Counted from the stretch's first letter, positions 4,668 through 63,084 are shown. The stretch is DNA of 64,000 bases from Clostridia bacterium (GCA_017517685.1 JAFWYK010000010.1:130499-194498); one strand, 5' to 3'. Made by a program: numbers and translations. The notes: generated by a model not told the origin, from the sequence alone.

Positions 4668-4695
4668 CGTGTGATACCATAAAATAAAGGAAATA

Positions 4696-4724
4696 TTGCA
4701 AAACTTTACATAATATGGTATAAT
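4696..4724 (+). promoter_or_regulatory. Sigma-A-type promoter of GC-rich cassette A
   Basis: TTGCAA, 17 nt, TATAAT, with TGG immediately upstream (extended -10). About 90-nt leader to ATG 4815. Confidence 0.65.
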
Positions 4725-4814
4725 AGTAACGTATGACAAAATTACACTGGCTGTGGAAATTGTCTGCAATAGTACATTGAAAAAACTTTTAATAACAGAA
4801 AGGATGATTGCCCA

Positions 4815-6650
4815 ATGATGAAAACGAAAACCCCTGGCAAGACAACAGCGACTCCTGAGAATGTTCTGATGATGAAGAACTATAAGCCTGGCTTCTTCAA
4901 GCCTGCTAGAACCATCATCGAATATGAGGGAATTACCCGTACGGATCGCGATGCGATAGTGAAGCTCTATGAAGCTTTGGTACCGAAAGATACGCAGCGC
5001 ACTATCAATCTTCGGATGATGGTTGAAGAAGCGTTCCCGAAATTTGAAGAGACTATTGGTGAGGCGAACTTCACTAAGGTTAAGAAGTATTTCGGTATCG
5101 GTGTCAAAAAGCCCAATAAGGGAGCACTTCGCGAAGGCGAGATCAATGCCATGATTGGCAAACTCAGAACCATTGAGAATGCTCAGTACTACATTACCGG
5201 CTTTGCAGAACTCATCGAGAAGATTGCAAATAAGCTTGGTGGTGCGCCTGAAGCAATGACCAGCCTTGAAAAGGCAAAGGTCGTACGTATGTTTATGGTG
5301 ATTTTCGCTGGTTATTTCTATTTCATTGAAGATTGTAATTACAGAAGAAATGGAGATACCATCGAGACCATCATCAACTATGCCAAGGTGCCGGATCTTA
5401 ACAGATTCCCGTTCCATCCTGAAGAACTCTTTGTGCTGTATGATTACAAGCTCAAGACCTACAGTGATAACGGAATCATTTACGACATCGTACAGATGGA
5501 AGTTATGGATCTGGACAAGAGAACCAGAAATGAACTGCTTACATTCGCAGAACTCAAGCTTGATCCTGAGAAGGAATTTGTTTCTGTGAATGAAACGGTA
5601 GCCTGCCAGACTTTTGGCAGCGTAAGAACCCTGAAGAGAAAAGTGCATCAGGAGCCTGGTGTATTCCCGATGGAGATCTTTACATGCAGAGACATGTTCG
5701 TCAAGATCGATTTTGACGATCTGTACGCTGTGTATAAAGCACTTAGATCTTTCCCACTCGAGAATTTCCCGACTGTGGACAGAGATGTTCCGGTATATGA
5801 GGGATCCAGATTGGTGCATAATAAGCACACATGCTATGAGATTATCAAAGGCATGGAAATCGCAGGACCGGCCGAAGCTAATCGTTTCGTAAGACTCATG
5901 GAGTATGCTATTACTGCCAATTACAATATTCCTGTTCGTCATGACAAGGATGGCAAGGAGCTTCCTATTGAGGAAGTTAAGTTCTATAATGCAAGGAATT
6001 ACCTGGCAGCCATTAAGTTTGCGAACGCAATGGGATATCTGGATGCATACACCGAGGTTGAAAGGGATTACGAAGTTGCAGAAATTCTTATTGAAAGAGA
6101 TGTGGATGATGGCTTGAAGCGCTATATTCACGGCGAGATCAATGAGATGCAGTTGAAGGAAATCCTGGAGATCGATGATCAGTTTGAAGAAGATGCCTTT
6201 GGTATCACTCATGAAGCTCCTCGAGCACCTATCGAAGAAATTGTACTTGCTTTTGCTATTGATAATGGCTATCTCGAGGAAAAGGCTGAGACCACGATGC
6301 AGCTGATTACTGAGGTGGTTTTGCCTGGTAATGAAGAGTTCTTTGAGCAGTATGAAAGCGGCGAAATCGACGCTCAGACCCTGGAAGGTAAGATTGGATT
6401 TGAAGATGAGTTTGCAGAGATGTATTTTGACGCCGAGAAGATTGACGTTACAGCTATCGAAAGTAAACTCCAGGATATGAAGCGTTCTATGGCCGACAAG
6501 AAAAAGATGCAGAAATCTGCATTGGCAATCTCTCTTTACTGTTATGTAGTTGAAGAGCAGATTCCGTGCGGAACGAAGAAGAAGGCTCCTAAGAGAAATA
6601 AGGGCCTGAAGCCTTCTAACTTGAAGGCACTTATCGCAAAATCTGCATAA
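4815..6650 (+). CDS. Hypothetical 611-aa protein, compositionally foreign (cassette A)
   Basis: Long ORF at about 43-47% GC in sampled lines, in a roughly 30% GC background. Codon usage is CTG/AAG/GAG/ATC-rich, with zero TTA/CTA/TCA codons. It has its own promoter, SD (GAAAGGA) and GC-rich terminator. I recognise no motif. Confidence 0.85.
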   Translation: MMKTKTPGKTTATPENVLMMKNYKPGFFKPARTIIEYEGITRTDRDAIVKLYEALVPKDTQRTINLRMMVEEAFPKFEETIGEANFTKVKKYFGIGVKKPNKGALREGEINAMIGKLRTIENAQYYITGFAELIEKIANKLGGAPEAMTSLEKAKVVRMFMVIFAGYFYFIEDCNYRRNGDTIETIINYAKVPDLNRFPFHPEELFVLYDYKLKTYSDNGIIYDIVQMEVMDLDKRTRNELLTFAELKLDPEKEFVSVNETVACQTFGSVRTLKRKVHQEPGVFPMEIFTCRDMFVKIDFDDLYAVYKALRSFPLENFPTVDRDVPVYEGSRLVHNKHTCYEIIKGMEIAGPAEANRFVRLMEYAITANYNIPVRHDKDGKELPIEEVKFYNARNYLAAIKFANAMGYLDAYTEVERDYEVAEILIERDVDDGLKRYIHGEINEMQLKEILEIDDQFEEDAFGITHEAPRAPIEEIVLAFAIDNGYLEEKAETTMQLITEVVLPGNEEFFEQYESGEIDAQTLEGKIGFEDEFAEMYFDAEKIDVTAIESKLQDMKRSMADKKKMQKSALAISLYCYVVEEQIPCGTKKKAPKRNKGLKPSNLKALIAKSA

Positions 6651-6670
6651 GACAAATCAAAACCACAGCA

Positions 6671-6709
6671 ACCGCCGTCTGGACAATTCCAGATGGCGGT
6701 TTTCTTTTT
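6671..6709 (+). terminator. Terminator of cassette A
   Basis: ACCGCCGTCTGG/CCAGATGGCGGT stem followed by TTTTCTTTTT. Confidence 0.85.
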
Positions 6710-6806
6710 GTTTTACATAATTTGTTTTGCTTAAATACTTGAAAAATATGCTATTTTATAATATAATTACAAATGTTATTTTAGAAGAAATTAAAGGAGA
6801 AGAATT

Positions 6807-8558
6807 ATGAAAGCTATAGAAATTAGAAACAAATACTTAAACTTTTTCAAAAATCATGGACATAGTGTGATTCCATCAGCGCCAGTAATTCCAGAAAACG
6901 ATCCATCTGTTTTATTTACAACAGCTGGAATGCAACCATTAGTACCATATCTTTTAGGACAAAAACACCCAGCTGGAACACGTTTAACAGATTTTCAAAA
7001 ATGTGTTAGAACTAATGATATAGATGAAGTTGGAGATAATAGACACTTAACATATTTTGAAATGTTAGGAAACTGGTCTTTAGGTGATTATTTTAAAGAA
7101 GAATCAATTGCAATGAGTTATGAATTCTTAACAAAAGAATTAGAAATTCCACAAGAAAAATTATCAGTAACATGTTTTGCTGGTGATGAAGATTGTAGTA
7201 GAGACGAAGTTGCGTATGCTGCATGGAGAAAAGCTGGTATACCAGATGAAAGAATTTATTTCTTTGGTAAAGATGATAACTGGTGGATAGCAGGAGAAGA
7301 AGGACCTTGTGGACCTGATACAGAAATGTTCTATGACACAGGAAAAGAAAAATGTTCTGAAGAATGTAATCCTTCTTGTGGTTGTGGAAAATATGTTGAG
7401 ATTTGGAATAACGTTTTTATGGAATTCTATAAAGATAAAAATGGATATTCTAAATTATCACAACAAAACGTTGATACAGGTTTAGGACTTGAAAGAATGG
7501 CTATGCTTTTACAAGGCAAAGAAACTCCTTTTGAAATAGAATTATTTGCTCCAGTAATGGAAAAATTAGTTGAGTTACAATCAAAAGATTTAATTCAAAG
7601 TAGAAGAATTGTTGCTGAACATTTACGTTCAAGCATGATGATTATCAATGATGGTGGAAGACCAAGTAATGTTGATAGAGGATATATTTTAAGAAGATTA
7701 TTAAGAAGAATGACAAGACATTTAAATAAATTAGAAATTAATTTAGATGAACTTGCTACAATTATTGATATTTCAATTGATAGTTTAAAAGAACTATATC
7801 CAGAATTAGATGCTAATAGAAATACAATTAAAGAAGTTATTATTGAAGAAAAAAATAAATTCATGAAAACACTTCAAAATGGTGAAAGAGAATTTGAAAA
7901 AGTTGCAAATAGAACAAAAAATGCAGGTAAAACAGTACTTGATACTCAAGCTGTATTTAATCTATATGAAACATATGGATTCCCACCAGAAATGACAGAA
8001 GAGTTAGCTCAAGAACAAGGATTAAAAGTTGATATGTCTGATTATCAAAGATTATTTGAAGAACATCAAGCAAAATCAAGACTTGGAAGTGAGCAAAAAT
8101 TTAAAGGTGGTCTTGCATCAAGTGGTGAAATGGAAACTAAATATCATACAGCAACACATCTTTTAAATGCAGCACTAAAAGTTGTATTAGGTGATCATGT
8201 TCACCAAAAAGGAAGTAATATTACTGCTGAGAGAATGAGATTTGATTTTTCTCATGGTGCAAAAATGACTGATGAAGAAAAACAAAAAGCAGAAGATTTA
8301 GTAAATGAATATATTGCTAAAGATATTCCAGTTGAAAAAATGGAAATGAAAAAAGAAGAAGCTATTAGTTTGGGAGCTGAAGCTATGTTCTTAGATAAAT
8401 ATGGTGACATAGTTACAGTTTATAAAATAGGTGATTTCTCAATAGAATTATGTGGTGGACCTCATGTTGAAAGAACAGGTGAATTAGGACACTTTAAAAT
8501 AAAAAAAGAGGAAGCATCATCATCAGGGGTAAGAAGAATTAAAGCAATACTTGAATAA
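6807..8558 (+). CDS. alaS: Alanine--tRNA ligase, short form lacking the C-Ala domain
   Basis: Class II AlaRS N-terminal core (FTTAGMQP, GNWSLGDYFK, WNNVFMEF). Editing-domain Zn motifs HTATHLL and CGGPHV. Only 583 aa, ending right after the editing domain. Confidence 0.85.
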   Translation: MKAIEIRNKYLNFFKNHGHSVIPSAPVIPENDPSVLFTTAGMQPLVPYLLGQKHPAGTRLTDFQKCVRTNDIDEVGDNRHLTYFEMLGNWSLGDYFKEESIAMSYEFLTKELEIPQEKLSVTCFAGDEDCSRDEVAYAAWRKAGIPDERIYFFGKDDNWWIAGEEGPCGPDTEMFYDTGKEKCSEECNPSCGCGKYVEIWNNVFMEFYKDKNGYSKLSQQNVDTGLGLERMAMLLQGKETPFEIELFAPVMEKLVELQSKDLIQSRRIVAEHLRSSMMIINDGGRPSNVDRGYILRRLLRRMTRHLNKLEINLDELATIIDISIDSLKELYPELDANRNTIKEVIIEEKNKFMKTLQNGEREFEKVANRTKNAGKTVLDTQAVFNLYETYGFPPEMTEELAQEQGLKVDMSDYQRLFEEHQAKSRLGSEQKFKGGLASSGEMETKYHTATHLLNAALKVVLGDHVHQKGSNITAERMRFDFSHGAKMTDEEKQKAEDLVNEYIAKDIPVEKMEMKKEEAISLGAEAMFLDKYGDIVTVYKIGDFSIELCGGPHVERTGELGHFKIKKEEASSSGVRRIKAILE

Positions 8559-8689
8559 AAATATAGGATAAGAAGTAATTTTTTGTTACTTCTTATTTTT
8601 TTTATTAATATTATGTAAAATTACTTGTAAATTATATGAATTATATGTAAAATATAAGTAGTATAATTGAAAAACACCGGTTTTTATGG

Positions 8690-8695
8690 TATAAT
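8690..8695 (+). promoter_or_regulatory. -10 box of the sortase gene promoter (TTGAAA 8667..8672, 17 nt, TATAAT)
   Basis: TTGAAA-17-TATAAT with TGG upstream of the -10. Confidence 0.55.
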
Positions 8696-8741
8696 ATAAT
8701 TAAGAAAATGTGTGAAAAATAAGGGATAGGAGAGAAAAATT

Positions 8742-9530
8742 ATGTCTAACAAATATGGTAATTTTTTAACAATGTTTTTAGTAGTTTTAATTGTTGCTAT
8801 TCTAGGTATTTTAGGATATTTTGTGTATGATATGATGCATTCTAAATCAGTAAATGCAAATGCGCAAACAGCTTTAGAACAATTTGAACAAGCAACTTCA
8901 GCAGTAAAGAAAGATAATGCAAGTTTATCGACATCTAAAGATGGAAAAGAAGAAACAAATACTGCTGCAACAAATACAACAAATACAGTTACAAATACAG
9001 CAACAAATGAAACAGGAAATACAGTTTCAAATACTGCAGCTTTAGATAAGTTAAATCAATTTGATAATTATTTAAATGCTACACAACCAGAAACAACAAC
9101 ACCAGATAATGGTGAAACAGAAAAAGTATATATGGAAGATTATGAAGTTTTAGGTAGAATTGAAATACCAAAAACAAAAGTTGATTATCCAATACTTGAA
9201 AATGTTACAAAAAGAAGTTTAGAGATTGCTGTAGGTAAAGCTTATGGACCTGGATTAAACTTACCAGGAAATACAACAATATTTGGACATAATTATAGAA
9301 ATGGACTATTCTTTTCAAATAATAAAAAATTATCAAATGGAGATAAAATTTATATAACAGATGCTCAAGGAAATAAAGTTACATATGTAATTTATAATAT
9401 TTATCAAACAACACCATCTGATGCATCATATATGCAAAGAGAAACAAATGGTAGAAGAGAGATATCATTACAAACATGTACAGATGATAGTTCAGCAAGA
9501 ATTATTATATGGGCAGCAGAGCAAGAATAA
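8742..9530 (+). CDS. Sortase-family transpeptidase, membrane anchored
   Basis: N-terminal TM segment, low-complexity T/N linker, catalytic His (TIFGHNY), Cys in SLQTC (TLxTC-type) and a downstream Arg. Confidence 0.85.
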   Translation: MSNKYGNFLTMFLVVLIVAILGILGYFVYDMMHSKSVNANAQTALEQFEQATSAVKKDNASLSTSKDGKEETNTAATNTTNTVTNTATNETGNTVSNTAALDKLNQFDNYLNATQPETTTPDNGETEKVYMEDYEVLGRIEIPKTKVDYPILENVTKRSLEIAVGKAYGPGLNLPGNTTIFGHNYRNGLFFSNNKKLSNGDKIYITDAQGNKVTYVIYNIYQTTPSDASYMQRETNGRREISLQTCTDDSSARIIIWAAEQE

Positions 9531-9602
9531 AAAAGTAGGACCTTCTAAAGAAGGTCCTTTTGTTATGCAAAAAAAGTGCTATTTTAAAATAGCACTTTTT
9601 AT

Positions 9603-10124
9603 TTAATCTCCAAATATTTTAATAATAATATTTTTAATAGTATTTAATACTTTTTTACATACGTCTAAAAATGATCCTTGAAGAACAGGTAAATTATCAT
9701 TATGAGTGTTACTATCATCACTAGATACATCTATTTTTGTGAATATATTATCTTGTTCTAGTTGTGAATTTAATTGGCTTTGAGTTCTTTTATCCATGAT
9801 AGCGTAATCCATAATCAATTCTTCTTTAGATTTTTTTCTAGATGACCAATAATTTGAATGAAGAAGTGAAAGAAGAGCTAATGTTTTATCATTTAATTTT
9901 TCTTCACCTATAGATTTTGTCATTGTAAATTCGTAATCTAAAGAACAATTATCATAAAAGAACATGATAAGTTTTTTAGGAATTTTGTCTACATATAATT
10001 TATCCATATGTCTTAAAACTTCTAATACTTCACTATATACTTGACGTTGTTCTAATGATATAACCATGTTTTTCTCCTTATTAATTATTTCCTCGGCAAT
10101 TCTGTCCTTTTTTCTTTTGAACAT
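9603..10124 (-). CDS. Hypothetical protein
   Basis: ORF 9603..10139. Start preferred at the second ATG (10124), which is behind GAGG. Shares a bidirectional terminator region (9530-9600) with the sortase gene. Confidence 0.6.
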   Translation of the reverse strand: MFKRKKDRIAEEIINKEKNMVISLEQRQVYSEVLEVLRHMDKLYVDKIPKKLIMFFYDNCSLDYEFTMTKSIGEEKLNDKTLALLSLLHSNYWSSRKKSKEELIMDYAIMDKRTQSQLNSQLEQDNIFTKIDVSSDDSNTHNDNLPVLQGSFLDVCKKVLNTIKNIIIKIFGD

Positions 10125-10153
10125 TTTTATCAACCTCATTTGTGCATAAAAAA

Positions 10154-10549: not shown

Positions 10550-10636
10550 AGGTATAATTCTCCTTATAAATACTTATATATAGAAATTATAGCATTAATA
10601 AAAAATTGCTTCAATAATTGTAATCAAAATGAGAAA

Positions 10637-10669
10637 TAAAAAAAGAGATTAATCTTTCGATTAATCTCT
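10637..10669 (-). terminator. Terminator of the tRNA-His/tRNA-Gln operon
   Basis: AGAGATTAATC/GATTAATCTCT stem followed by a T-run on the minus strand. Confidence 0.8.
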
Positions 10670-10671
10670 TT

Positions 10672-10747: not shown

Positions 10748-10753
10748 ATGTAA

Positions 10754-10831
10754 TGGGGTGGAAGATGGGACTCGAACCCACGGTCTTCAGTGCCACAAAC
10801 TGACGCGTTAACCAACTACGCTACATCCACC
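10754..10831 (-). tRNA. tRNA-His (anticodon GUG) with encoded G-1
   Basis: The reverse complement GGTGGATGTAGCGTAGTTGGTTAACGCGTCAGTTTGTGGCACTGA... has anticodon stem TCAGT/ACTGA with loop TTGTGGC, an extra 5' G pairing with C73, and encoded CCA. There is one T-T mismatch in the acceptor stem. Confidence 0.85.
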
Positions 10832-10861
10832 ATGTTGTGTCGATTCTCACAACGCTCTTAT

Positions 10862-10890
10862 ATTTTAAAACAAAAATAATCTTTTGTCAA
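10862..10890 (-). promoter_or_regulatory. Promoter of the tRNA-His/Gln operon
   Basis: Minus strand TTGACA, 17 nt, TAAAAT. Confidence 0.6.
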
Positions 10891-10924
10891 TCTATTTTAT
10901 TAAAAAAGTTAAATAATTTATTAA

Positions 10925-10952
10925 AATAATAAAAAAGGGAGGAGCACTCCCG
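10925..10952 (-). terminator. Terminator of cassette B
   Basis: GGGAG/CTCCC GC-rich hairpin followed on the minus strand by TTTTTTATTATTTT. Confidence 0.7.
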
Positions 10953-11001
10953 ATTTTGAGTTAGCCCCAAAAGAGAGTGCCCCAGAGTTCAAGAATGACG
11001 G

Positions 11002-11547
11002 TTAATTCTGGTTAATCAAGCCAATGTAGAATCTCATGAACTTAACGATGCTGACACCACCGACACAAGCTTTGACAGTTTCATAGTATTTCCAGGTCTG
11101 GAACTCATTGTAGAGGTCAGCAGGATTTACCAGAATTTTGTGCTCATGGTCAAGGATGCCGATAAGGGTATCGATGTTCAGAAAACCTACAGACTCTTTC
11201 GCAGCAAGGCTCTGTGCAAGCCGCACAACGTTCGGAGTGTCGATGGAATCGAACTCGAAGCCGTAGCAGAATGCGTTTGCCTTATCTTTGCGGGTAGGTG
11301 CGTCCTTCAACTCATCTAAATAAGCGTTGTACTCCTTGATCTGTTTTGCCATTGCTGCTGAAAGCTTTTCAGATTTGGTGGCGGTCAGGTTAGGAGCGTA
11401 AACGGTAGATTCGTTGTATGCCTTGATGATAGCGCGCTGAAGACTGTCGTCGAGAGTGGAAAATTCGATGGTCTTAGGCAGCTTTTCACCAGGGATTTTA
11501 AGGACAAGCTTGTCATCCAGAATTGCATAAGTTGTTTGTTTTTTCAT
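11002..11547 (-). CDS. Hypothetical 181-aa protein, compositionally foreign (cassette B)
   Basis: About 45-57% GC in sampled lines. SD AAAGGAG 8 nt before the ATG. Own promoter and terminator. I recognise no motif. Confidence 0.8.
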   Translation of the reverse strand: MKKQTTYAILDDKLVLKIPGEKLPKTIEFSTLDDSLQRAIIKAYNESTVYAPNLTATKSEKLSAAMAKQIKEYNAYLDELKDAPTRKDKANAFCYGFEFDSIDTPNVVRLAQSLAAKESVGFLNIDTLIGILDHEHKILVNPADLYNEFQTWKYYETVKACVGGVSIVKFMRFYIGLINQN

Positions 11548-11678
11548 AAAGTGATCTCCTTTGCATTGGTATTCTTGAATATATAATCATTACCGGACAC
11601 ATTCATTAGAATGCATTGTCCTAGTAAAAAGATTATCAATATTTTCAATGTGCATTATTTACATAAAATCTACTAAAT

Positions 11679-11707
11679 ATTATAACATGTTTTTGTAATA
11701 AAGTCAA
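11679..11707 (-). promoter_or_regulatory. Sigma-A-type promoter of cassette B
   Basis: Minus strand TTGACT, 17 nt, TATAAT. The roughly 130-nt leader contains a GGACA..CATTC/GAATG..TGTCC hairpin (11601-11632). Confidence 0.6.
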
Positions 11708-11898
11708 AAACATACAAAACAAGCCAATATTTTACAGGAAATAGAAAAAATAAATGGGGAACATAAATAAAAGTTAGCAAAAAAGTTTATGAATTTTTAA
11801 TAAAAATCATGTACAAAATGATTGAGTATTGTTATACTTAATATATTGTGAAAAATGTTGAAAAATGTTTTTTAATAAAAGTGATATTGGTGACAAAT

Positions 11899-13005: not shown

Positions 13006-13024
13006 TGTAAAATACGGAGGAAAA

Positions 13025-33855: not shown

Positions 33856-34389
33856 ATGAGATATAAAGAATTAGACATCGATAGAATGAAAAAGAATGTA
33901 AGACCTCCGCATATTAGTACCGGTAAGGAAGAAGAAGCGTGGAGGCATTATGACATTGCAAATTGCTATTCGTATGCACTTGGTGTGTTTGAAGATATTG
34001 ATTATTTAAGACCAGGTGAAATTGCGAACATGGAATATAAACCAGAATATTCCGACGAAGAGATTTTAGAAAGAGTAATGCGCGATTTGGAAGTGTTGGG
34101 ACTTGAGACCACACAATCTTCTTTGGAAGAGGTAATTGAAGATGAGTACTCTTGGAAAATTGCTATTATGAATGTAGAAACAGGAGAAGCTCATATTTTT
34201 TATGATTATCATTTCTTAAAGCAAGGAAAAAATCAAAAGTGGTATCATAAACAACCTTATGACCAATTTCCGTCCAGATTCGATTCGCGAAATAAAGAGA
34301 TAGAAAATCCTGAAACAGCAACGTATTCGTTTCACTATCATTTAGTTGGATACTTAGTTGTTCGTCAAGTTCAAACTGCGAGAGCCTAA
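33856..34389 (+). CDS. Hypothetical protein, possible Cys/His papain-fold hydrolase; mildly GC-elevated (cassette F)
   Basis: About 38% GC, with CG dinucleotides that are rare in the host. NCYSYALG (candidate nucleophile Cys) and DYHFLKQGKNQKWYHKQ (candidate His) are spaced as in small cysteine peptidase/amidase folds. Terminator at 34381..34405. Confidence 0.6.
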   Translation: MRYKELDIDRMKKNVRPPHISTGKEEEAWRHYDIANCYSYALGVFEDIDYLRPGEIANMEYKPEYSDEEILERVMRDLEVLGLETTQSSLEEVIEDEYSWKIAIMNVETGEAHIFYDYHFLKQGKNQKWYHKQPYDQFPSRFDSRNKEIENPETATYSFHYHLVGYLVVRQVQTARA

Positions 34390-34610
34390 TTGGGCTCTTT
34401 TTTTATTAGATTTGAAGCGTTTTTTGTTTTGGTATAAAATGTTATATATTTGTTATAGCAAATGATTTTTTTATTTGATAAAATAGCTTAAAGAAATATA
34501 TCTATTAGGAGAATTGTTTGTGATAACAGAAGTTGGTATGAAAAGATTTTTAATAAGGTAAAATTATTGTTTTCTAGATTACTTAATAAAGAATAATTAT
34601 GGAGGTATAT

Positions 34611-38304: not shown

Positions 38305-38931
38305 ATGAAAAGAAATTTTGATGTAGATAACTTTATTAAAAGACTACAGTCACATTGTAGGTTGTGTGAAACAAAAGAGTTTCAAGAAGGGGAAGTAATA
38401 ACAACATTCTTACTAAGAAGAAATCAGTTTTGTATATTGCTTGAGGGTGAAGCTCAATTAATAACTTATGATATAGAAGGAAATAAAAAAATTCTGTATT
38501 ATTATAAAAAGAATGAAATATTTGGAGAGGCTTTGTTTAAAGTGCATATGAATAAAGAATTATTTGTTCTTGCTAAAAAGAAATGTAAAGTGCTTTTTTA
38601 TCCATATGATACTGCAGAGAATTGTACGGATTCATCATGCTTTTTTCACTTAGAGATATTAAGAAACTTGCCTGATTTAATTCTACACAATATTGCTGAG
38701 CAAAATTTTAGAATGATTCTTTTAACTTATAAAGGTGTAAGGGATAAATTATTAACGTATTTTAATTATTTATCATTAGAAAGTTCGAGTAAAACAATTG
38801 AAATTCCGTTTTCATTAACAGATCTTGCGGATTACTTAATGATAGAAAGAACAGCAATGATGAGAGAACTTAAGAGATTACAAGATGAAAATATAATTAG
38901 GAAGAATAAAAATAAAATAATATTATTATAA
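38305..38931 (+). CDS. Crp/Fnr-family transcriptional regulator
   Basis: An N-terminal cNMP-binding-like barrel and a C-terminal HTH (LTDLADYLMIERTAMMRELKRLQDENII). Confidence 0.75.
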   Translation: MKRNFDVDNFIKRLQSHCRLCETKEFQEGEVITTFLLRRNQFCILLEGEAQLITYDIEGNKKILYYYKKNEIFGEALFKVHMNKELFVLAKKKCKVLFYPYDTAENCTDSSCFFHLEILRNLPDLILHNIAEQNFRMILLTYKGVRDKLLTYFNYLSLESSSKTIEIPFSLTDLADYLMIERTAMMRELKRLQDENIIRKNKNKIILL

Positions 38932-38937
38932 AAAGAA

Positions 38938-38971
38938 AAGACTACAAACCTTGTGGGAATGTAGTCTTTTT
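38938..38971. terminator. Bidirectional terminator between crp/fnr and cassette C
   Basis: AAGACTACA/TGTAGTCTT stem flanked by an A-run and a T-run. Confidence 0.75.
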
Positions 38972-38985
38972 GCAGTTTTTCCACT

Positions 38986-39600
38986 TCAGAAAGCGGAATG
39001 GCTTTTGATTTTCTTGCGGTTTTGCTTTTCGAGAGTGCGTCTTGCTTCGAGCTCTGCAAAGAACTTTTCGGTTTTTGTGCGATCGCTCGCTGTGGTGATA
39101 GAACGTTTCCGAACATCTTCGAACACCTTGTCAGAGATGATGAGTTCAACACAAGCAAGATACAACACGTAGTCAAGGGGAGTCGTCTTATGGAAAGAAA
39201 ATACACGAGCGATTTCTGCTTTTGTTTGTTCAGGATGATTAGCAAAATATCTTGCGATATGAGCAATATCCTGTTTGGTAAATGCAGATAAGTGTTTTCT
39301 CTTTTCTATAAGCAAGTCATACTTGAGTTGACTCTTGTGACCGTTGTTGCCATGTGCTTTTTGGTTGACCTTGATTTTATCAAGGATCTTCTCTGCAGTT
39401 TCAATGCTCACCAAATGATGGGTGATTGCCATTGCGAGTAAGGTGTAGTAGGTACTTTCGGTAACGTTATATTTCTCAGTGAGAGAAGAGCGAGCATAAG
39501 TCGCGGACGACTTTGCATAGTCTACAGCAATAGCCCGTGCGAGTTTGTAAACTCCGGCTACAGTATTGCACCGACGAATGTCAAGAATTGTTCTTGCCAT
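38986..39600 (-). CDS. Hypothetical 204-aa protein, compositionally foreign, possibly DNA-binding (cassette C)
   Basis: About 45% GC. Start placed at ATG 39600 behind GGAGGTG. Two HTH-like stretches (EKYNVTESTYYTLL and TKAEIARVFSFHKTTPLDYV). Basic C-terminal tail. Confidence 0.75.
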   Translation of the reverse strand: MARTILDIRRCNTVAGVYKLARAIAVDYAKSSATYARSSLTEKYNVTESTYYTLLAMAITHHLVSIETAEKILDKIKVNQKAHGNNGHKSQLKYDLLIEKRKHLSAFTKQDIAHIARYFANHPEQTKAEIARVFSFHKTTPLDYVLYLACVELIISDKVFEDVRKRSITTASDRTKTEKFFAELEARRTLEKQNRKKIKSHSAF

Positions 39601-39649
39601 AGTAACACCTCCAATTGTAATAGTGTGTGAATTAATAAACTGCATATTA

Positions 39650-39678
39650 ATTATATCACAAAAAAGCGATTAAATCAA
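39650..39678 (-). promoter_or_regulatory. Sigma-A-type promoter of cassette C
   Basis: Minus strand TTGATT, 17 nt, TATAAT, preceded by TGA (extended -10). Confidence 0.6.
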
Positions 39679-40175: not shown

Positions 40176-40193
40176 AATATAAATACATATAAG

Positions 40194-40227
40194 AAAAGCA
40201 CCCTGCCGGTATGGTAGGGTGCTTTTT
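40194..40227. terminator. Bidirectional GC-rich terminator between dfx and cassette D
   Basis: GCACCCT/AGGGTGC stem flanked by AAAA and TTTTT. Confidence 0.75.
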
Positions 40228-40269
40228 GTCAGATAAATGCCAAGTAGATGCGTCTGGTTTATGAGTTAC

Positions 40270-40632
40270 TTAAATTTGTTTTTTGGGTTCAATGCAGTAT
40301 CTTGCAAAAGGTTCTTGTTCCTCAAGTTTGTCATATTCTGCATTGTAATTAAATTCAACAACCTTGAAATCTTCTTCGAAAGACCGAAGAAGTTCAACAG
40401 CGTTTTCAAAAGAAAAATTGTTGGTTACGACGATACTCAAAATATTATCAGACTGGATGAACTGGCAGGTATCGGAAGTAATATAAAATTTAGATAAGAT
40501 GTCTTCAATATCTATAAATGTTTTTTTCCATTCTCTTTTCCGTTTCGCCATAGTTTCATCATGATCTTTTTGCAGTTTATAGATTACATCATTGCCTAAC
40601 AGGGCAATTACAATTTCTTTCACAGGTGTCAT
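40270..40632 (-). CDS. Hypothetical 120-aa protein (cassette D, mildly atypical composition)
   Basis: SD AGGAGGG. 30-37% GC in sampled lines, with local CG-rich patches. Own promoter. I recognise no motif. Confidence 0.65.
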   Translation of the reverse strand: MTPVKEIVIALLGNDVIYKLQKDHDETMAKRKREWKKTFIDIEDILSKFYITSDTCQFIQSDNILSIVVTNNFSFENAVELLRSFEEDFKVVEFNYNAEYDKLEEQEPFARYCIEPKKQI

Positions 40633-40706
40633 TCTAACCCTCCTATTATAGAAAACGTCTTACACTCTGACTAATGTAAATATTTCAATAAACTTGACAT
40701 AATATT

Positions 40707-40735
40707 AGTATAGCATAGAAAGGGCTATAAGTCAA
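40707..40735 (-). promoter_or_regulatory. Sigma-A-type promoter of cassette D
   Basis: Minus strand TTGACT, 17 nt, TATACT. Confidence 0.55.
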
Positions 40736-56082: not shown

Positions 56083-56106
56083 TTAAATAGGAATAAAGGT
56101 AAGCTT

Positions 56107-56685: not shown

Positions 56686-56687
56686 AA

Positions 56688-58430
56688 ATGAAAGAAAGAA
56701 TTTATAAAGGATGTAAAAGAGAAGTACCTGCAAAAAAATTCAATAATTTAAAAGAAATCCTTGCAAATTGTAAAGAAGAATTTGGAGATAAAGCTGTATA
56801 TAAATTCAGAAATCCAGAAACAAAAGAACATTATACAATGAGTTATTCTGAACTATATGATGATGTTAATGCTTTGGGAACAGCTTTAATTAGTATAGGT
56901 CTTAAAGATAAAAGAATAGGTGTTATTGGAGAAAATAGATACGAATGGCAAGAAGCATATTTAGCAACAACTTGTGGAACTGGTATCGTAGTTCCTTTAG
57001 ATAAAGCTTTAACAGAAAATGAATTATTAAGTTTAATTGAAAGATCTGAAATAGAAGCTGTATTCTATTCATCAAAATATGATGAAATGATGCAAAGAGC
57101 TAGAACTGAAAATATAGGAAATGTTAAGTTCTTTATTTCAATGGATTTAGAAGAGAAAACAGATGATGTTTATTCTCAAAAAGAATTAACTAAACTTGGT
57201 AAAGACTTAATAAAAAATGGTGCTAGAAGTTTCTTTGATGCTGAAATAAACAATGATGCTATGGCAATTATGTTATTTACTTCAGGAACAACATCTCAAT
57301 CAAAAGCAGTAATGCTTTCAAATACAAATATATGTACAAATATATATGATATTTCATCAGTATTTGACCTTAATAAAGATGATACATTACTTTCATTCTT
57401 ACCACTTCATCATGTGTTTGAATGTACAGTTGGATTTTTATATGCAATAAGTAGAGGGGCAACTATAGTATTTTGTGAAGGAATTAGACATATTGCAGAT
57501 AATTTAAAAGAATTTGAAGTAACAGTTATGATTGCAGTTCCAGTATTATTTGAAAATATGTACAAAAAAGTAATGCAAGGAATTGATAAAAAAGGTAAAA
57601 CAAAAACTGTAAAATTTGGTATTAAACTTTGCAAATTCTTAAAACTTTTTGGTATAGATTATAGAAGAAAAATATTTAAAGATATTCATGCAAATTTTGG
57701 TGGAAAATTAAGATTATTAGTTGGTGGTGGAGCTGCATTAGATCCAGAAACAGAAAAAGGATTTACAGATTTAGGTGTAGATACATATCAAGGATATGGA
57801 TTATCAGAAACAGCACCAGTTGTTGCTGCTGAAAACCCATTTAATCATAGACTTGGATCAATTGGAAAAACATTCCCAAGTATAGAAACAAAGATTGTTG
57901 AACCAAATGAATTAGGAATAGGTGAACTTGCAGTTAAAGGTCCAACAGTTATGCTTGGTTATTATGGAAATGAAGAAGCAACAAAAGAGTGTATGATAGA
58001 TGGATGGTTCCACACAGGAGATTTAGCTTATATTGATAAAGATGGATTTATATTTATAACAGGAAGAAAGAAAAGTGTTATCGTATTAAAAAATGGTAAA
58101 AATGTATTCCCAGAAGAAACAGAAACATTAATTAATAAAATTCCAGGTGTAAAAGAATCATTTGTGTTTGGAAAACCAGATGAAGAAGATCAAAATGATT
58201 TGAAAATGTGTGTAGAAGTTGTTTATGATAAAGATGTTATGAAATCTGAATATAATGTAGAAACAGAAGAAGATATTCATGCAAAATTATGGGAAAAAAT
58301 TAAAGAAATGAACAAAACAATGCCAAAATATAAATACGTAAAAGAATTGATTATAACAGAAGAACCATTGATTAAAACAACAACATTAAAGATAAAAAGA
58401 CATGAAGAAATTAAAAAAGTATTAAAATAA
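56688..58430 (+). CDS. AMP-dependent synthetase/ligase (long-chain acyl-CoA synthetase-like)
   Basis: AMP-binding motif LFTSGTTSQSKAVMLS, GYGLSET, and the TGDL...D.DG...I.GR.K pattern. Confidence 0.85.
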   Translation: MKERIYKGCKREVPAKKFNNLKEILANCKEEFGDKAVYKFRNPETKEHYTMSYSELYDDVNALGTALISIGLKDKRIGVIGENRYEWQEAYLATTCGTGIVVPLDKALTENELLSLIERSEIEAVFYSSKYDEMMQRARTENIGNVKFFISMDLEEKTDDVYSQKELTKLGKDLIKNGARSFFDAEINNDAMAIMLFTSGTTSQSKAVMLSNTNICTNIYDISSVFDLNKDDTLLSFLPLHHVFECTVGFLYAISRGATIVFCEGIRHIADNLKEFEVTVMIAVPVLFENMYKKVMQGIDKKGKTKTVKFGIKLCKFLKLFGIDYRRKIFKDIHANFGGKLRLLVGGGAALDPETEKGFTDLGVDTYQGYGLSETAPVVAAENPFNHRLGSIGKTFPSIETKIVEPNELGIGELAVKGPTVMLGYYGNEEATKECMIDGWFHTGDLAYIDKDGFIFITGRKKSVIVLKNGKNVFPEETETLINKIPGVKESFVFGKPDEEDQNDLKMCVEVVYDKDVMKSEYNVETEEDIHAKLWEKIKEMNKTMPKYKYVKELIITEEPLIKTTTLKIKRHEEIKKVLK

Positions 58431-58640
58431 TTTTTTAAGAGTAGGCTATAAGCTTACTCTTTTTTTATATATTTAACATAAAAATAATTATAAAAATTAT
58501 AAAATGGAAAAAACATGAACTGTTACGGAAATACGAAAAATGTAACACAAATGTAATCAAAAATCTCTTGTTTTTTTAAATAAAAGTCGATATAATATCA
58601 GTAGTATTTAATTAGATTGATACGAAGGAGGTAGTTTACA

Positions 58641-59645
58641 ATGTCATTTTTCGGTAAATCAGGCATAGTAAACGTGAAAATGGTAATCACGGAAGAAAAA
58701 ATTTTATCAAATATAGATAAAGTTCAAAAATTAATTAATCCAAATAGTAAAAAACAAATAGTACAATTAGAGGATGATTCTTATTTTAAAGATTTAGTAG
58801 AATCAATTAAAACATATTTAATTGAATATCCAAAGAAAAAGAATTTTCCATCTAGTGTTTATAAAGCTGCTTATGATTTAGTTGAGTATGCTACAAATCA
58901 ATTTGAGGAAAATACAAAAAAAGTTGAAGATTTAATTAGACAAAGAGAAAAAAATATTAAACTTGCAACTGTATTAAGAGATGCTACAACAGCAGTAAAA
59001 GCAAAAGCTAAAAACTGGAAAGAAATAGTTAAAAAGTTAGAAGCTAAATATCCAGCTGATGTTGCTGAAGCTTTAACAATTATTGGTAAAGCAAAAGATA
59101 AAGCATCAGAAGAATACAATGGAGCAGTTAAATTAATAGATGCTAAAATTAATAATTTAGAGTCAAACTTACATATTGAAATAGATATGGAAAGAATTGA
59201 AGATAAATCAAAAGCATTAAGCTATATTGGAATAGAAATTGCAGAAGCTTTAAAATATATACCAGCACCAGTTGATGAAGTTCTTGGTGGAACAGAAGTT
59301 GGTGGAGGAGTTGAAGAAGCTACAGTTACACCAGCTGCAGTTGTTGAAACAAAAGTTGAACCAGTTGCTGTTGCAGCTCCTGAAACAGGATCTGAAGAAG
59401 TTGGAACTACAGAAGGAACAACAGTTGGCGGTGGAGTTGAAGAAACAGCTGGAACACCAGTTGTTGAAGCTACTACAACAGAATCTGAAATGGATACATA
59501 CTTTGAAGAAACAAGATTTGAAGCAAAACCTTCATTATGGCAAAGAATTAAAAATAGTAAATTCGTTAGAACAATTAGATATATTATGCAAATTAGAGTT
59601 GTTCTTGATTACCCAGCTTTACCAGAAGGAAGAGAAGATTTCTAG
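58641..59645 (+). CDS. Hypothetical protein with a V/E/T/G-rich repetitive linker
   Basis: SD GGAGG. Helical N-half. Repeated GGGVEE(A/T) motifs at about 59290..59460. Confidence 0.65.
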   Translation: MSFFGKSGIVNVKMVITEEKILSNIDKVQKLINPNSKKQIVQLEDDSYFKDLVESIKTYLIEYPKKKNFPSSVYKAAYDLVEYATNQFEENTKKVEDLIRQREKNIKLATVLRDATTAVKAKAKNWKEIVKKLEAKYPADVAEALTIIGKAKDKASEEYNGAVKLIDAKINNLESNLHIEIDMERIEDKSKALSYIGIEIAEALKYIPAPVDEVLGGTEVGGGVEEATVTPAAVVETKVEPVAVAAPETGSEEVGTTEGTTVGGGVEETAGTPVVEATTTESEMDTYFEETRFEAKPSLWQRIKNSKFVRTIRYIMQIRVVLDYPALPEGREDF

Positions 59646-59722
59646 TAAAAAATATATAAAGCAAGAGTTTAAAGCTCTTGCTTTTTTTGTGTTAAAAAAT
59701 TTTTTTATTAAGTAATATATTA

Positions 59723-59784
59723 TTGACAGTGTTTTAAAATAGCAATATAATACAAACATATGAACAGATATTCACATGTTCATA
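59723..59784 (+). promoter_or_regulatory. arsR/cadA promoter and operator
   Basis: Perfect TTGACA-17-TATAAT (59723..59751), followed by the inverted repeat TATGAACA-N10-TGTTCATA (59759..59784). This is typical of the ArsR/SmtB (CadC-type) operator arrangement. Confidence 0.6.
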
Positions 59785-59796
59785 CAAGGAGGTCAT

Positions 59797-60153
59797 ATGG
59801 AAACATTTATAAAATGTGATGAAGAAGTTTCAAATATTGAACTTGTAAATAAAGTTAAGAATAATCTATTATCAGATGAAGAGATATTTGATTTGGCAGA
59901 GTTGTTTAAGGTATTTGGTGATTCAACAAGAATGAAGATAATAAATGCTTTAATGAAACAAGATTTATGTGTATGTGATATTGCATTAATAACTAATTCT
60001 ACACCATCAGCAATTTCTCATCAATTAAGGGTTTTAAAACAAGCTAAACTTGTTAAATATAGAAAAGAAGGAAAATCTGTAATATATTCATTAGATGATG
60101 AACATGTTAAAGAAATATTTGAGAAAGGTCGTGAACACATTGAAGAAATATGA
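59797..60153 (+). CDS. ArsR/SmtB-family metalloregulator (CadC-like)
   Basis: ELFKVFGDSTRMKIINAL....LCVCD......S.SAISHQLRVLK. Start placed at ATG 59797 behind AAGGAGG. Confidence 0.88.
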   Translation: METFIKCDEEVSNIELVNKVKNNLLSDEEIFDLAELFKVFGDSTRMKIINALMKQDLCVCDIALITNSTPSAISHQLRVLKQAKLVKYRKEGKSVIYSLDDEHVKEIFEKGREHIEEI

Positions 60154-62332
60154 GTTTATTTTAGAAGGATTAGATTGTGCAAACTGTGCTAATAAAATTC
60201 AATATAAGTTTACTGAAAACATTAATTATTATAATGTAGTGGTAAATTTTAATACACTTAAATTATCATTTGAAACAGAAGATGATTTTGAAGTAGATTT
60301 AGATGAAGTATCAAGAGTTGTAAAATCATTAGAACCAGATGTAATTGTTCATTATATAGATGAACATTACAAAGAAGTTGTTACACATGATGACGAGAAT
60401 GAACATGTACATGATGAACATTGTGAACACGAACATGAAATGCATCATGAGCATGAAGATGATAAAGAAGAACATAATCATGATGTAGAAAACAAGACCT
60501 CAAAAACTAAAAAGAAAAATAATAATTTATTAAGAATATTGTGTGGATTAATAGTAATGTTAACAATTGCACTTGTTGATATGCCAGAAGAATATTCGTT
60601 AGTTCTTTCAATAGTTGCTTATATAATTTTATTATTTAGAACAACAAAAAATGCAATTAAGCTTTTAAAATCAAAAGTAATAGAAGAAAATTTCTTAATA
60701 ACAGTATCTTGTATAGGAGCTTTTATAATAGGAGAAAGATTTGAAGGATTAATGGTTATCTTTCTTTATGAAATAGGAAAATATTTAGAAGATAAAGCTG
60801 TTAATAATACAAGAAAATCAATAGCAGAATTAATGGATATAAGACCAGAATATGCAAATTTATTACATAAAAATCATGAACATAAAGTTGATCCTAGCCA
60901 AGTAAATATAGGAGATATAATAGTAGTTAAGCAAGGAGAAAAAATACCTTTAGATGGTATTGTAGTAGAAGGGGAAGCCAGTTTAAATACAGCAAGTTTA
61001 ACTGGAGAATCTAAACCTGTTGATGTGAAGATAGAAGATAGAGTATTATCTGGAAGTATAAACGTAAATGGTCTTATAAATGTAAGAGTTACAGAAAAAT
61101 ATGAAGATAGTACAGTAGCAAAAATATTACATTTAGTTGAAAATGCAACAGATAAAAAAGCTAAAACGGAAACGTTTGTAAATAGAGCATCTAGAATTTA
61201 TACACCAGTTGTATTAATATTAGCATTACTTGTGGCAATTGGTCTTCCAGTAGCTCTTGATATTACATATACAGAGAGTATATATAGAGCACTTATATTT
61301 TTAGTTGTTTCTTGCCCTTGCGCGATAGTTATTTCAGTTCCGCTTAGCTATTTTTCTGGAATTGGTAAAGCGTCTAAAAAAGGTATATTAATTAAAGGAA
61401 GTAATTATATAGATGCTGTAAGAGATATTAAATATATTGCGTTTGATAAAACAGGAACATTAACCAAAGGAAAGTTTGAAGTTGAAAAAGTAAAAGTATA
61501 TGATAAAGACTTTTCAGAAGATGAAGTGCTAGAATATGCAGCCTATGGTGAAAGTTTTTCTAATCATCCATTAGCAATAGCTATTTTGGATGAATATAGT
61601 AAAACTATAAACAAAGATAGAATATCAGGTTATAAAGAAGTTGCAGGTAATGGTATTACATATAAATATGATAATAAAAAGGTTAAAATAGGAAATGCAG
61701 AATTTACAGGTGCTAAAGAAGAAAAAACAAATGGTACTTGTATATATATTAAATTAGACGATATTGTAATTGGCTCTATTATATTAAGTGATACAATTAA
61801 AGAAGAATCGAAATCTGCAATCACAGCCTTAAATAAACTTGGAATAAAAACAATGATGTTTACTGGCGATAATGTAGAAGTAGCAAAAACAGTAGCAAGT
61901 ATTATTGGTATAAAAGAAGTAAAAGCAGAAATGCTTCCAAATGATAAATATAATGAAATTGAAAAATTAATAAAGAATAAAACAAAAGGAAATGTTGCAT
62001 TTGTAGGTGACGGAATTAATGATGCACCAGTTTTAGCTTTAGCTGATGTTGGTATAGCAATGGGAGGAATAGGAGCAAGTTCTGCAATTGAGGCATCAGA
62101 TGTCGTTATTATGACAGATAACTTAAATAAAGTTGCAGAGACAATAAAACTTTCAAAATTTGTAACAAGAGTAATAAAACAAAATTTAATGTTTGCATTT
62201 TTAGTAAAATTAATTGTTTTAGAACTTAGTGTTTTTGGATTAGCACAAATGTGGATGGCTATATTTGCAGATGTTGGTGTTACATTATTAACAATATTAA
62301 ATACAATGAGAATTTTATGGAAAAGAAAATAG
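60095..62332 (+). CDS. Heavy-metal (Cd/Zn/Co-type) P1B-ATPase
   Basis: HMA-like CANC motif, His/Asp/Glu-rich tract, CPC in TM6, DKTGT, GDGINDAP. The exact start is uncertain, as the ORF overlaps the arsR end by 59 nt. Confidence 0.9.
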   Translation: MMNMLKKYLRKVVNTLKKYEFILEGLDCANCANKIQYKFTENINYYNVVVNFNTLKLSFETEDDFEVDLDEVSRVVKSLEPDVIVHYIDEHYKEVVTHDDENEHVHDEHCEHEHEMHHEHEDDKEEHNHDVENKTSKTKKKNNNLLRILCGLIVMLTIALVDMPEEYSLVLSIVAYIILLFRTTKNAIKLLKSKVIEENFLITVSCIGAFIIGERFEGLMVIFLYEIGKYLEDKAVNNTRKSIAELMDIRPEYANLLHKNHEHKVDPSQVNIGDIIVVKQGEKIPLDGIVVEGEASLNTASLTGESKPVDVKIEDRVLSGSINVNGLINVRVTEKYEDSTVAKILHLVENATDKKAKTETFVNRASRIYTPVVLILALLVAIGLPVALDITYTESIYRALIFLVVSCPCAIVISVPLSYFSGIGKASKKGILIKGSNYIDAVRDIKYIAFDKTGTLTKGKFEVEKVKVYDKDFSEDEVLEYAAYGESFSNHPLAIAILDEYSKTINKDRISGYKEVAGNGITYKYDNKKVKIGNAEFTGAKEEKTNGTCIYIKLDDIVIGSIILSDTIKEESKSAITALNKLGIKTMMFTGDNVEVAKTVASIIGIKEVKAEMLPNDKYNEIEKLIKNKTKGNVAFVGDGINDAPVLALADVGIAMGGIGASSAIEASDVVIMTDNLNKVAETIKLSKFVTRVIKQNLMFAFLVKLIVLELSVFGLAQMWMAIFADVGVTLLTILNTMRILWKRK

Positions 62333-62342
62333 TATAAAAAAC

Positions 62343-62373
62343 AAAAGCTCGTAGCGCATGCTACGAGCTTTTT
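62343..62373. terminator. GC-rich bidirectional terminator between the P-type ATPase and cassette E
   Basis: AGCTCGTAGC/GCTACGAGCT stem with loop GCAT, flanked by AAAA and TTTTT. Confidence 0.8.
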
Positions 62374-62383
62374 GCTTGCCCCT

Positions 62384-62920
62384 TTAGAGGATAAAGAAAA
62401 ATTCTTTGGGGCAGGGTAATGACTTTCGTTCGGCGTACTTTTCGAGAATAACGTTGAGTTCTTCGCAAGTTACGTCATCTGAAATCCAGGCAAGAACAGG
62501 ATTGTTCTTCTTGACTTTGCTTTTTGCGGGATTGTCGCTGTTGATGTGTTTGTCGGCAATCACGAGGGCATAGCGTCCATAGTTGATGATGGTTGCAATG
62601 TTGCGGATGATATCATCCTTTACCAGCTGATCATATTTTTCATAAAAAGCAGCTTGTGTAGGCATACATTTATCATCACCGATATAGGACAAGGCCCATG
62701 CGATTTTTGCACCCCGTGTGGTAGGTAGTTCAGCGCGGCTTAAAAGAGGCGGCTTTTTCTGGCCTTGAGGCACGATGTAAAAAGCTTGGCCTAACTTGGC
62801 AGGCTGAGACAGTACCATTTCGCCACAGAGTTTAGTTTGTAGGAACCGTCCGTCGAATTTGCATTCGATGAACTCATTGATTGAGAAGTCTTGCGGCGTT
62901 TTCGTGATGAAAATCAGCAA
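62384..62920 (-). CDS. Hypothetical 178-aa protein, compositionally foreign (cassette E)
   Basis: 43-50% GC in sampled lines. TTG start 8 nt after GGGAAAGG, with an in-frame TAG six codons upstream. I recognise no motif. Confidence 0.7.
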   Translation of the reverse strand: MLIFITKTPQDFSINEFIECKFDGRFLQTKLCGEMVLSQPAKLGQAFYIVPQGQKKPPLLSRAELPTTRGAKIAWALSYIGDDKCMPTQAAFYEKYDQLVKDDIIRNIATIINYGRYALVIADKHINSDNPAKSKVKKNNPVLAWISDDVTCEELNVILEKYAERKSLPCPKEFFFIL

Positions 62921-63055
62921 TGTCTTTACCTTTCCCTACGGTATAGAAGTCTATACTTTCGTTCCCAGAAATAAATTATTTGTTTGTAAAGTCTGGGCTG
63001 CTTTGGTCTATGTCGAGTTTGACTGTTACCGTTAACAAAAAAAGTTAACGGGATA

Positions 63056-63084
63056 ATTATAACATAATTTACATAAAATGTCAA
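63056..63084 (-). promoter_or_regulatory. Sigma-A-type promoter of cassette E
   Basis: Minus strand perfect TTGACA, 17 nt, TATAAT. The roughly 130-nt GC-rich leader contains the hairpin CCGTTAAC-T7-GTTAACGG (63029..63051). Confidence 0.65.

Follow-up and report, generated by a model that had tools for sequence, protein, structure and literature searches.

Differences in GC content among the genes of one bacterial genome are almost always read as horizontal transfer, and the small inserts recognized in this way, genomic islets and acquired ORFans, combine atypical GC content and codon usage with orphan status, an intergenic position and, in some cases, presence or absence among relatives. Here we consider six genes that resemble them in these respects, cassettes A to F, carried on a 64,000-nucleotide stretch of Clostridia bacterium DNA (GCA_017517685.1, JAFWYK010000010.1:130499-194498; hereafter the window). 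Acquired ORFans are usually AT-richer than their host, whereas A–F are GC-richer, and several other described systems offer partial parallels. Integron gene cassettes are likewise single-gene units mostly of unknown function. Codon-defined regulons, such as the bldA/TTA system of Streptomyces and the codon-biased stress regulons tied to tRNA modification, consist of dispersed genes marked by codons rare in the remaining genome. GC-biased gene conversion produces an excess of AT-to-GC fixation at synonymous sites, with reported effects in bacteria of a few percent along recombination tracts. Finally, work from the Ochman laboratory (PMC4478552) offers experimental arguments that the G+C content of genes is itself under selection, and in Bacillus cereus mRNA half-life correlates positively with the G+C percentage of the coding sequence (CDS; r = 0.27, P = 1e-12); the latter paper (PMC3446304) also quotes the position that strong secondary structure at the 5′ end is among the predictors of mRNA stability in B. 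subtilis. The resemblance of these last two to A–F is that a fixation bias toward G/C opposes AT-biased mutation and acts on nucleotides, not on the protein.

The cassettes differ from each of these precedents. They are not integron cassettes: they are dispersed, have their own promoters, and show no attC site or array and no integrase among their annotated neighbors. The differences from selection on G+C as described elsewhere are those of scale and shape, since here about 10% of genes are affected, GC3 (GC content at third codon positions) is 0.3-0.5 versus 0.1, and the effect is bimodal and bounded by transcripts. The host is Candidatus Scatovivens, a small-genome gut clostridial lineage of about 27% GC, and the whole window has 27.6% GC. 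In a 500-nt profile, GC content exceeds 40% in four blocks (5.0-6.5, 11.0-11.5, 39.0-39.5 and 62.5-63.0 kb). The distribution of GC3 in the window is bimodal, with 48 host open reading frames (ORFs) at 0.05-0.20 and A–F at 0.28-0.53 (Table 1); no further outlier occurs among window ORFs of at least 100 aa, and the outlier set is exactly A–F, or 6 of 55 ORFs, about one gene in ten. The first-pass annotation had set these six apart from the host by composition, with D and F only mildly raised, and had described them as monocistronic orphan units forming one distinct compositional class; the computed values bear this out (GC3 of 0.298 for D and 0.281 for F) and show the set to be complete. The compositional anomaly is fully confirmed and far beyond chance. 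GC3 is also bimodal at 25 related loci, where 311 of 373 ORFs differ from the local median by no more than 0.05 and 48 of 373 exceed it by 0.15-0.45, a fraction biased by the choice of these loci for carrying GC-rich genes. Four of the six cassettes (B, C, D and E) are read from the minus strand. Of the host genes about three quarters lie on the plus strand, whose cumulative GC skew rises along the window, and the cassettes may be enriched on the lagging strand.

The shift in codon usage is extensive. In cassette A all 13 glutamine codons are CAG (host CAA 99%), 42 of 55 lysine codons are AAG (host 11%), none of 42 leucine codons is TTA (host 68%), and only 1 of 48 isoleucine codons is ATA (host 42%) and 1 of 26 proline codons CCA (host 75%). 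The main movement is away from A-ending codons, the frequency of A at third positions falling from 0.48 to 0.18-0.26 and that of T from 0.40 to about 0.30, and across the A family glutamine, lysine and glutamate move to G-ending codons. Individual codons are nevertheless chosen specifically: A prefers CCT and CCG over CCA and CCC (CCA 1 versus CCT 15), lacks CTA altogether, uses GTC 3 times versus 11 for GTG, and GGG is absent from all six genes. Nor is the bias confined to synonymous sites. First codon positions of the cassettes have a GC content of about 0.49-0.51 versus about 0.41 in the host, and alanine makes up 8-10.5% of residues versus 5.3%. The 5′ leaders have 27-39% GC versus 19 +/- 6% upstream of host genes, and the 60 nt past the stop codon have 32-52% GC in A–E and 23% in F versus 23 +/- 5.5% in the host. 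Because leaders, 3′ ends, first codon positions and alanine content are all raised, the pressure appears to act on the nucleotides of the whole transcript and not on codon choice alone. The GC-rich tracts fade within about 60-100 nt of the ORFs, and alanyl-tRNA synthetase (AlaS; GC3 0.11) begins 157 nt after A. The suggestion that raised GC extends into leaders and terminators is thus correct as a description, apart from the host-like 3′ end of F, although the import that was read from it is not supported.

Whether such a composition is decaying or maintained can be judged from the pattern of substitution. For codons conserved in three species, changes at synonymous third positions were polarized by parsimony, the first triplet being the window and its relative L008 with L010 as outgroup (L numbers denote related loci). 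In the host flanks GC-to-AT changes were fixed at 0.137 per GC site and AT-to-GC changes at 0.037 per AT site; in A and B together the corresponding values were 0.162 and 0.157. AT-to-GC fixation is therefore 4.2-fold higher in A and B than in the flanks (Fisher p = 1e-21), with no significant difference in GC-to-AT fixation, and the implied equilibrium GC3 of 0.49 compares with 0.46 at present. For A in four further triplets AT-to-GC fixation was 3-5 times that of the flanks (p 5e-8 to 5e-14), with implied equilibria of 0.42-0.58 versus present values of 0.27-0.37. Relative to the host, the cassette rate is 4.2x for A>G, 3.3x for T>C and more than 10x for A>C and T>G, with 0.7x for C>T, 1.4x for G>A and 0.5x for A<->T. 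Since the implied equilibrium is at or above the present value, the composition is maintained and not decaying, and none of the five triplets shows the amelioration toward host composition expected of an island. The substitution pattern corresponds to a bias toward G/C in fixation. Hypermutation or a diversity-generating mechanism was considered and rejected: within the species, C, D, F and E carry single-nucleotide polymorphisms (SNPs) about as densely as their flanks do, A<->T changes are halved, and A and B diverge as other non-core genes do. Overall synonymous divergence of the cassettes is about twice that of the flanks.

The history of A is equally informative. A genome scan with a profile of the A family recovered 18 species representatives, which are Candidatus Scatovivens or unclassified Clostridia metagenome-assembled genomes (MAGs) of human and animal gut origin. 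A lies at one site in at least 13 of these related species, in the order SpoVT-Sel1-A-AlaS-sortase, and at every species locus its homologue has a GC3 of 0.18-0.53 versus about 0.10 in the flanks. The same gene with the same composition thus recurs at orthologous loci, which the first-pass annotation had named as the mark of ancient residents. Homologues of A are GC-enriched also in more distant genera with other synteny (L021-L025), and distant paralogues of 563, 705 and 893 aa have GC3 values of 0.30, 0.47 and 0.54. Among 15 further metagenome loci 13 carry a GC-enriched A member in AT-rich DNA; the two excepted are L053, which has no flank outside the gene, and L054, which looks chimeric. 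In all, every one of the roughly 35 A-family loci examined that have readable flanks lies in AT-rich DNA, with gene GC3 of 0.18-0.54. Sequence identities place the window with L008 and L010 (A 66-76%, AlaS 95-98%), L011 with L013, L019 and L027 (A 44-66%, AlaS 94-97%) and L018 with L020 and L023 (A 46-63%, AlaS 92-95%). Because the identity matrix of A gives the same three clades as AlaS, and because the site is shared, these alignments indicate that at least A is vertically inherited. Extraordinarily fast evolution of A was rejected, as other non-core genes diverge as much from L008: identity is 76% for A and 79% for B, against 78% for the sortase, 73% for GH25 and 79% for the S11 peptidase.

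Taken together, the observations make it likely that A–F are resident, lineage-restricted genes held at a GC-rich equilibrium. The fixation bias would act on whole transcripts, including the leader, all three codon positions and the terminator, and among the possible causes we favor selection on the message itself, for stability or persistence. Each unit would combine a strong sigma-A promoter with an extended -10 element, a strong Shine-Dalgarno site and a strong terminator. In a cell of mostly AU-rich mRNA, a GC-rich body would suit a message that is unusually stable and is expressed strongly or over long periods. The fall in GC content within about 60 nt of the transcript ends, the 5′ hairpin with compensatory changes in the A family and the B. 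cereus correlation of half-life with G+C are taken as support for a process centered on mRNA. We infer mRNA-level selection as the specific agent only tentatively, and rate its chances well below even. The combined statement, that these are resident genes at a GC-rich equilibrium probably maintained by selection on mRNA, stands between the two and is in our judgment somewhat favored. It is also possible that A–F form a dispersed functional set.

Several observations weigh against this explanation. The GC-to-AT rate in the cassettes is equal to or higher than that of the flanks, although selection for GC should lower it. This could arise from constrained GC sites in host genes together with parsimony error, and it also fits a mutational or conversion input. 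Parsimony is imperfect at saturated or compositionally extreme sites, and gives host genes an impossible equilibrium GC3 of 0.20-0.52 versus the real 0.05-0.09. The cassettes show no extra mRNA structure, as their folding z-scores relative to synonymous shuffles are like those of host genes, and the highly expressed S2 and EF-Ts genes of the window are not GC-rich (GC3 0.18 and 0.15). The codon pattern may resemble that of mid-GC Clostridia. Finally, the turnover of B and C described below leaves room for horizontal movement within the lineage.

An unlikely explanation, which nevertheless survives best among the rivals, is a non-selective local bias, either GC-biased gene conversion at recombination hotspots or a mutation or repair bias linked to transcription. 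A three- to five-fold rise in AT-to-GC fixation in which GC-to-AT is not lowered is what such a bias would give and simple selection would not, and the doubled synonymous divergence, the enrichment of untranslated parts and the position of four of the six units on the minority strand point the same way. The edges of the enriched tracts speak against recombination-tract effects such as biased gene conversion, however, because they are sharp at transcript ends, which conversion tracts should not respect, and because AlaS escapes the effect at a distance of 157 nt. The size of the effect, four- to five-fold in GC3, also separates it from described gene conversion. The codon-specific preferences speak against a uniform mutational bias acting on bases, A<->T transversions occur at a lower and not a higher rate, and SNP density within species is ordinary. 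Transcription-coupled mutation, like ordinary translational selection, is difficult to reconcile with the unaffected S2 and EF-Ts; the cassettes accordingly do not belong to a translationally selected, highly expressed class, as these two genes keep host codons.

Marginally less probable is a codon-based regulon in which G/C-ending codons (CAG, AAG, GAG, ATC and CTG among them) would make translation depend on, or withstand changes in, the state of a particular tRNA or of tRNA modification, for example in stress, in sporulation or when a phage triggers the loss of tRNAs for A-ending codons. The movement mainly away from A-ending codons and the G-ending glutamine, lysine and glutamate codons across the A family agree with this idea. 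The window encodes Gln(UUG), His(GUG) and Leu(UAA) tRNAs, and that its only glutamine tRNA is Gln(UUG) is a further point in favor. Known codon-defined regulons, however, depend on a single codon or a small number of codons together with a known tRNA, whereas here no single codon stands out and the whole transcript is shifted; pure codon selection leaves the enrichment of leaders, terminators and first codon positions unexplained.

The least probable of these three rivals is recent or recurrent import of whole transcription units from mid-GC donors, such as other gut Clostridia or their mobile elements, with insertion or replacement by flank homology and no amelioration since. Composition and codon usage are indeed strongly atypical of the host, as for an island or islet, and not all cassettes share the fixed position of A. 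Cassette B, which adjoins a tRNA operon (tRNA-His/Gln) as islets may, is polymorphic for presence among congeners. It is missing in L027, L019, L004 and L020, whose sister species have it, and the empty sites are clean spacers of 200-307 nt with 15-20% GC (window 10831-11847 versus L027 15949-16176, L019 14508-14789, L004 13949-14255 and L020 16562-16761). A candidate target-site duplication at B was rejected, since both copies of the AT-rich repeat are already present in the empty sites. Homologues of C occur at 60% and 47% identity in quite different neighborhoods, and relatives carry additional GC-rich orphans at other intergenic sites. From these comparisons B and C appear to have been lost, gained or relocated among congeners, and some turnover is real; D, E and F were followed within species only. 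One distant A paralogue (L037) adjoins an integrase.

Against import stand the syntenic and tree-congruent distribution of A in at least 13 species and the absence of net GC decay in five triplets, with AT-to-GC fixation 3-5 times that of the flanks. The families are very small, restricted to the lineage and confined to AT-rich relatives; no donor lineage or mobile-element relative was found, and none of the members identified comes from a GC-richer genome. The searches for A, B and C yielded no GC-richer donor context, with the sole exception of L054, a short and probably chimeric contig. A, B, C and E have no relatives in GenBank phage records, nor A, B and C among IMG/VR viral contigs; a phage or plasmid origin thus finds no match in phage records or IMG/VR, the plasmid collection not having been searched. 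The integrase beside the L037 paralogue has a host-like GC3 of 0.10. The first-pass annotation reported no integrase, transposase, repeats or target duplications at the junctions, and this agrees with the annotated neighbors, among which there is no integrase or transposase, and with the repeat search, which returned no convincing direct or inverted flanking repeats but only weak AT-rich ones expected by chance. The units thus show no recognizable mobility machinery. The recent, mechanism-less insertion proposed there is not supported for A, given its synteny, congruent tree and equilibrium composition, and for the other cassettes there is no evidence of a donor.

An assembly or binning artefact, in which foreign reads were stitched into an AT-rich MAG of an uncultured organism known from metagenomes and in which E falls on short contigs in 8 of 8 assemblies, is effectively refuted and may be set aside, as three independent assemblies reproduce the junctions of A and B, four those of C, D and F, and four those of E, the assemblies from ENA, Logan and NCBI deriving from different samples and agreeing at 97-100% identity (A/B, C/D/F, E), and as orthologous junctions are found in many species.

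The cassettes encode real proteins. A–F translate to ordinary, non-repetitive sequences, the ratio of nonsynonymous to synonymous substitution rates (dN/dS) of A is about 0.12, and all 5 of 5 within-species SNPs in the 144-aa frame of E fall at codon position 3. Non-coding RNA genes were rejected, since Rfam finds only three tRNAs and coding constraint is clear, and pairwise comparison gave no similarity that would make A–F mutual paralogues. None of the six matches Pfam, NCBIfam, PHROGs or PADLOC at any curated threshold, in keeping with the earlier impression that they contain no nameable motif, and sequence searches of the PDB, including profiles, were also negative. AlphaFold (AF2) models are confident for A (predicted local distance difference test, pLDDT, 84; predicted template modeling score, pTM, 0.69) and for the all-helical C (pLDDT 90, pTM 0.84); Foldseek found no significant match for A in the PDB and BFVD or for C in the PDB. 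Both A and C end in basic C-terminal tails, which hint at possible nucleic-acid binding. The A family comprises 96 representatives among 1.84 billion proteins, B has 22 homologue clusters, all unnamed, and C has 35 clusters; as judged from their homologues, families A, B and C do not extend beyond this lineage. Distant A relatives and the other GC-rich orphans likewise lack recognizable domains. F contains the motif NCYSYALG followed by conserved histidines, which recalls papain-like or NlpC/P60-type cysteine peptidases, and no profile matched it.

Transcription signals of the cassettes are well formed and, in part, deeply conserved. The promoters of A–E with 17-nt spacers were read exactly as first described, and all five have the extended -10 TG. 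They are not exceptional: promoters of the same quality precede AlaS, the sortase and the tRNA operon, and the window contains 125 promoter-like sites versus 129 in shuffles. No promoter was identified upstream of the F coding sequence. The units have strong Shine-Dalgarno sites and strong terminators. A hairpin lies near the 5′ end of the A leader and, by eye, of the B and E leaders, which probably share this feature. In the A family, whose leaders were folded as single sequences, the hairpin is conserved with compensatory changes (AUGAC/GUCAU, AUGGCA/UGCCA, AUGAAA/UUUCAU). Promoter and leader are kept more deeply than the protein (window 4696-4814; L008, L010, L007, L011-L027, L036, L037, L039): the promoter reads TTGAAAAAnTTnACATAATnTGnTATAAT and is followed by the 5′ hairpin, and many members carry GTACATTGAAA before the Shine-Dalgarno site. 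The A-family leader has no Rfam match and may represent a new cis-regulatory or stabilizing leader. A window-wide operator of sequence TTWACATAAT was rejected, as it is not enriched (6 matches versus 3.1 expected).

Some details of the reading frames listed in Table 1 require comment. The most likely start of C is the one listed, which is also the NCBI annotation and the form of most homologues; a 219-aa reading from 39645 is unlikely. For E the ATG start is the probable one. The reverse strand of A contains a long ORF exactly in codon phase with the gene, which was rejected as a gene: the antisense frame is open because A lacks the codons TTA, CTA and TCA, each of which reads as a stop on the opposite strand. 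F is conserved in four strains.

Table 1. Positions and features of the six cassettes and of the ORF antisense to A, in window coordinates
Feature	Strand	Unit	CDS	Product	Promoter	Leader	Terminator	GC3
Cassette A	+	4696..6711	4815-6650	611 aa	TTGCAA-17-TATAAT with TG, 4696-4724	~84 nt, hairpin at 5′ end	6670-6701, then T tract	0.485
Cassette B	-	10937..11707	11002-11547	181 aa	TTGACT-17-TATAAT, 11707-11679	~125 nt	~10937-10951	0.533
Cassette C	-	38931..39678	38986-39600 (most likely start)	204 aa	TTGATT-17-TATAAT, 39678-39650		~38931-38970	0.409
Cassette D	-	40190..40735	40270-40632	120 aa	TTGACT-17-TATACT, 40735-40707		hairpin, 40194-40226	0.298
Cassette E	-	62343..63084	62384-62818 (ATG, probable) or to 62920 (TTG)	144 aa or 178 aa	TTGACA-17-TATAAT, 63084-63056	5′ hairpin, arms CCGTTAAC..GTTAACGG	62343-62372	0.497 (about 0.48-0.50)
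Cassette F	+	33856..34405	33856-34389	177 aa			short	0.281
ORF antisense to A (rejected)	-		4650..6212	520 aa				

A number of further observations concern the surroundings of these genes in related assemblies. The exceptional contig L054 (positions 1-1579 of OLOX01033595.1), 1.6 kb in length, joins a larB/larC-like stretch of 68% GC to an A-like fragment; it is probably chimeric and is the sole A-family match with a GC-rich flank. In a related species a homologue of C belongs to a cluster of GC-rich orphans with AT-rich orphans in between (L032 3064-10113 and 13291-14331; L033), and this cluster adjoins a GC-rich colicin-DNase/WHH toxin gene, a context that a proponent of import would stress. 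In the place that D occupies in the window, on the 3′ side of the CDF transporter gene, a related species carries a GC-rich gene with a weak SAICAR-synthetase-like match. The contigs that carry E (window 62001-63400; L055-L058) are shorter than 2 kb in the 8 of 8 assemblies read and cross both junctions at 97-99.5% identity; the vicinity of E seems to be a place where assembly graphs break. In one strain the interval from the flavin reductase gene to F contains three additional genes (L030 15006-17438; window counterpart about 34400-34600), encoding proteins of 153 aa and 406 aa and a CpXC-domain protein, and L028 deviates from the window around 27.3-31.9 kb. The 563-aa A paralogue of L036 (2988-6311), which is GC-enriched, follows spoIVA immediately and has gerA nearby, and L034 contains an isolated GC-enriched gene for a Spo0A C-terminal domain; a link to sporulation is a possible reading of these neighbors.

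The cassettes depart from genomic islets in that A is inherited vertically at a fixed site, the composition is at equilibrium, and no donor, mobility gene or convincing repeat was found. They constitute a lineage-wide second class of orphan genes, which is less ordinary than a set of islands. We found no description of the phenomenon in the literature on Scatovivens or TANB77. A more speculative proposal, which we regard as improbable but worth stating, is that Scatovivens-type Clostridia keep a tenth of their genes, all lineage-specific orphans of novel fold in self-contained units, in a GC-rich 'dialect' enforced by selection on transcripts. Such messages could survive, or still be translated, upon destruction of the AU-rich bulk mRNA or loss of function of the tRNAs for A-ending codons, as might occur in dormancy, sporulation, toxin activation or phage attack. 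Were this correct, it would reveal an undescribed regulatory layer encoded in composition and would provide direct natural evidence for gene-specific selection on G+C.

If the maintained GC-rich equilibrium is confirmed, these loci would offer a natural, gene-resolved system for studying a force that opposes AT-biased mutation, with the flanking genes as built-in controls, and the candidate forces, namely selection on mRNA, codon-based control and biased conversion, could be tested in it. A practical consequence is that composition-based detection of horizontal transfer would misclassify such genes. The cassettes would also add new and abundant protein families to those of the uncultured gut Clostridia, at least two of them with confident predicted folds that are unmatched.

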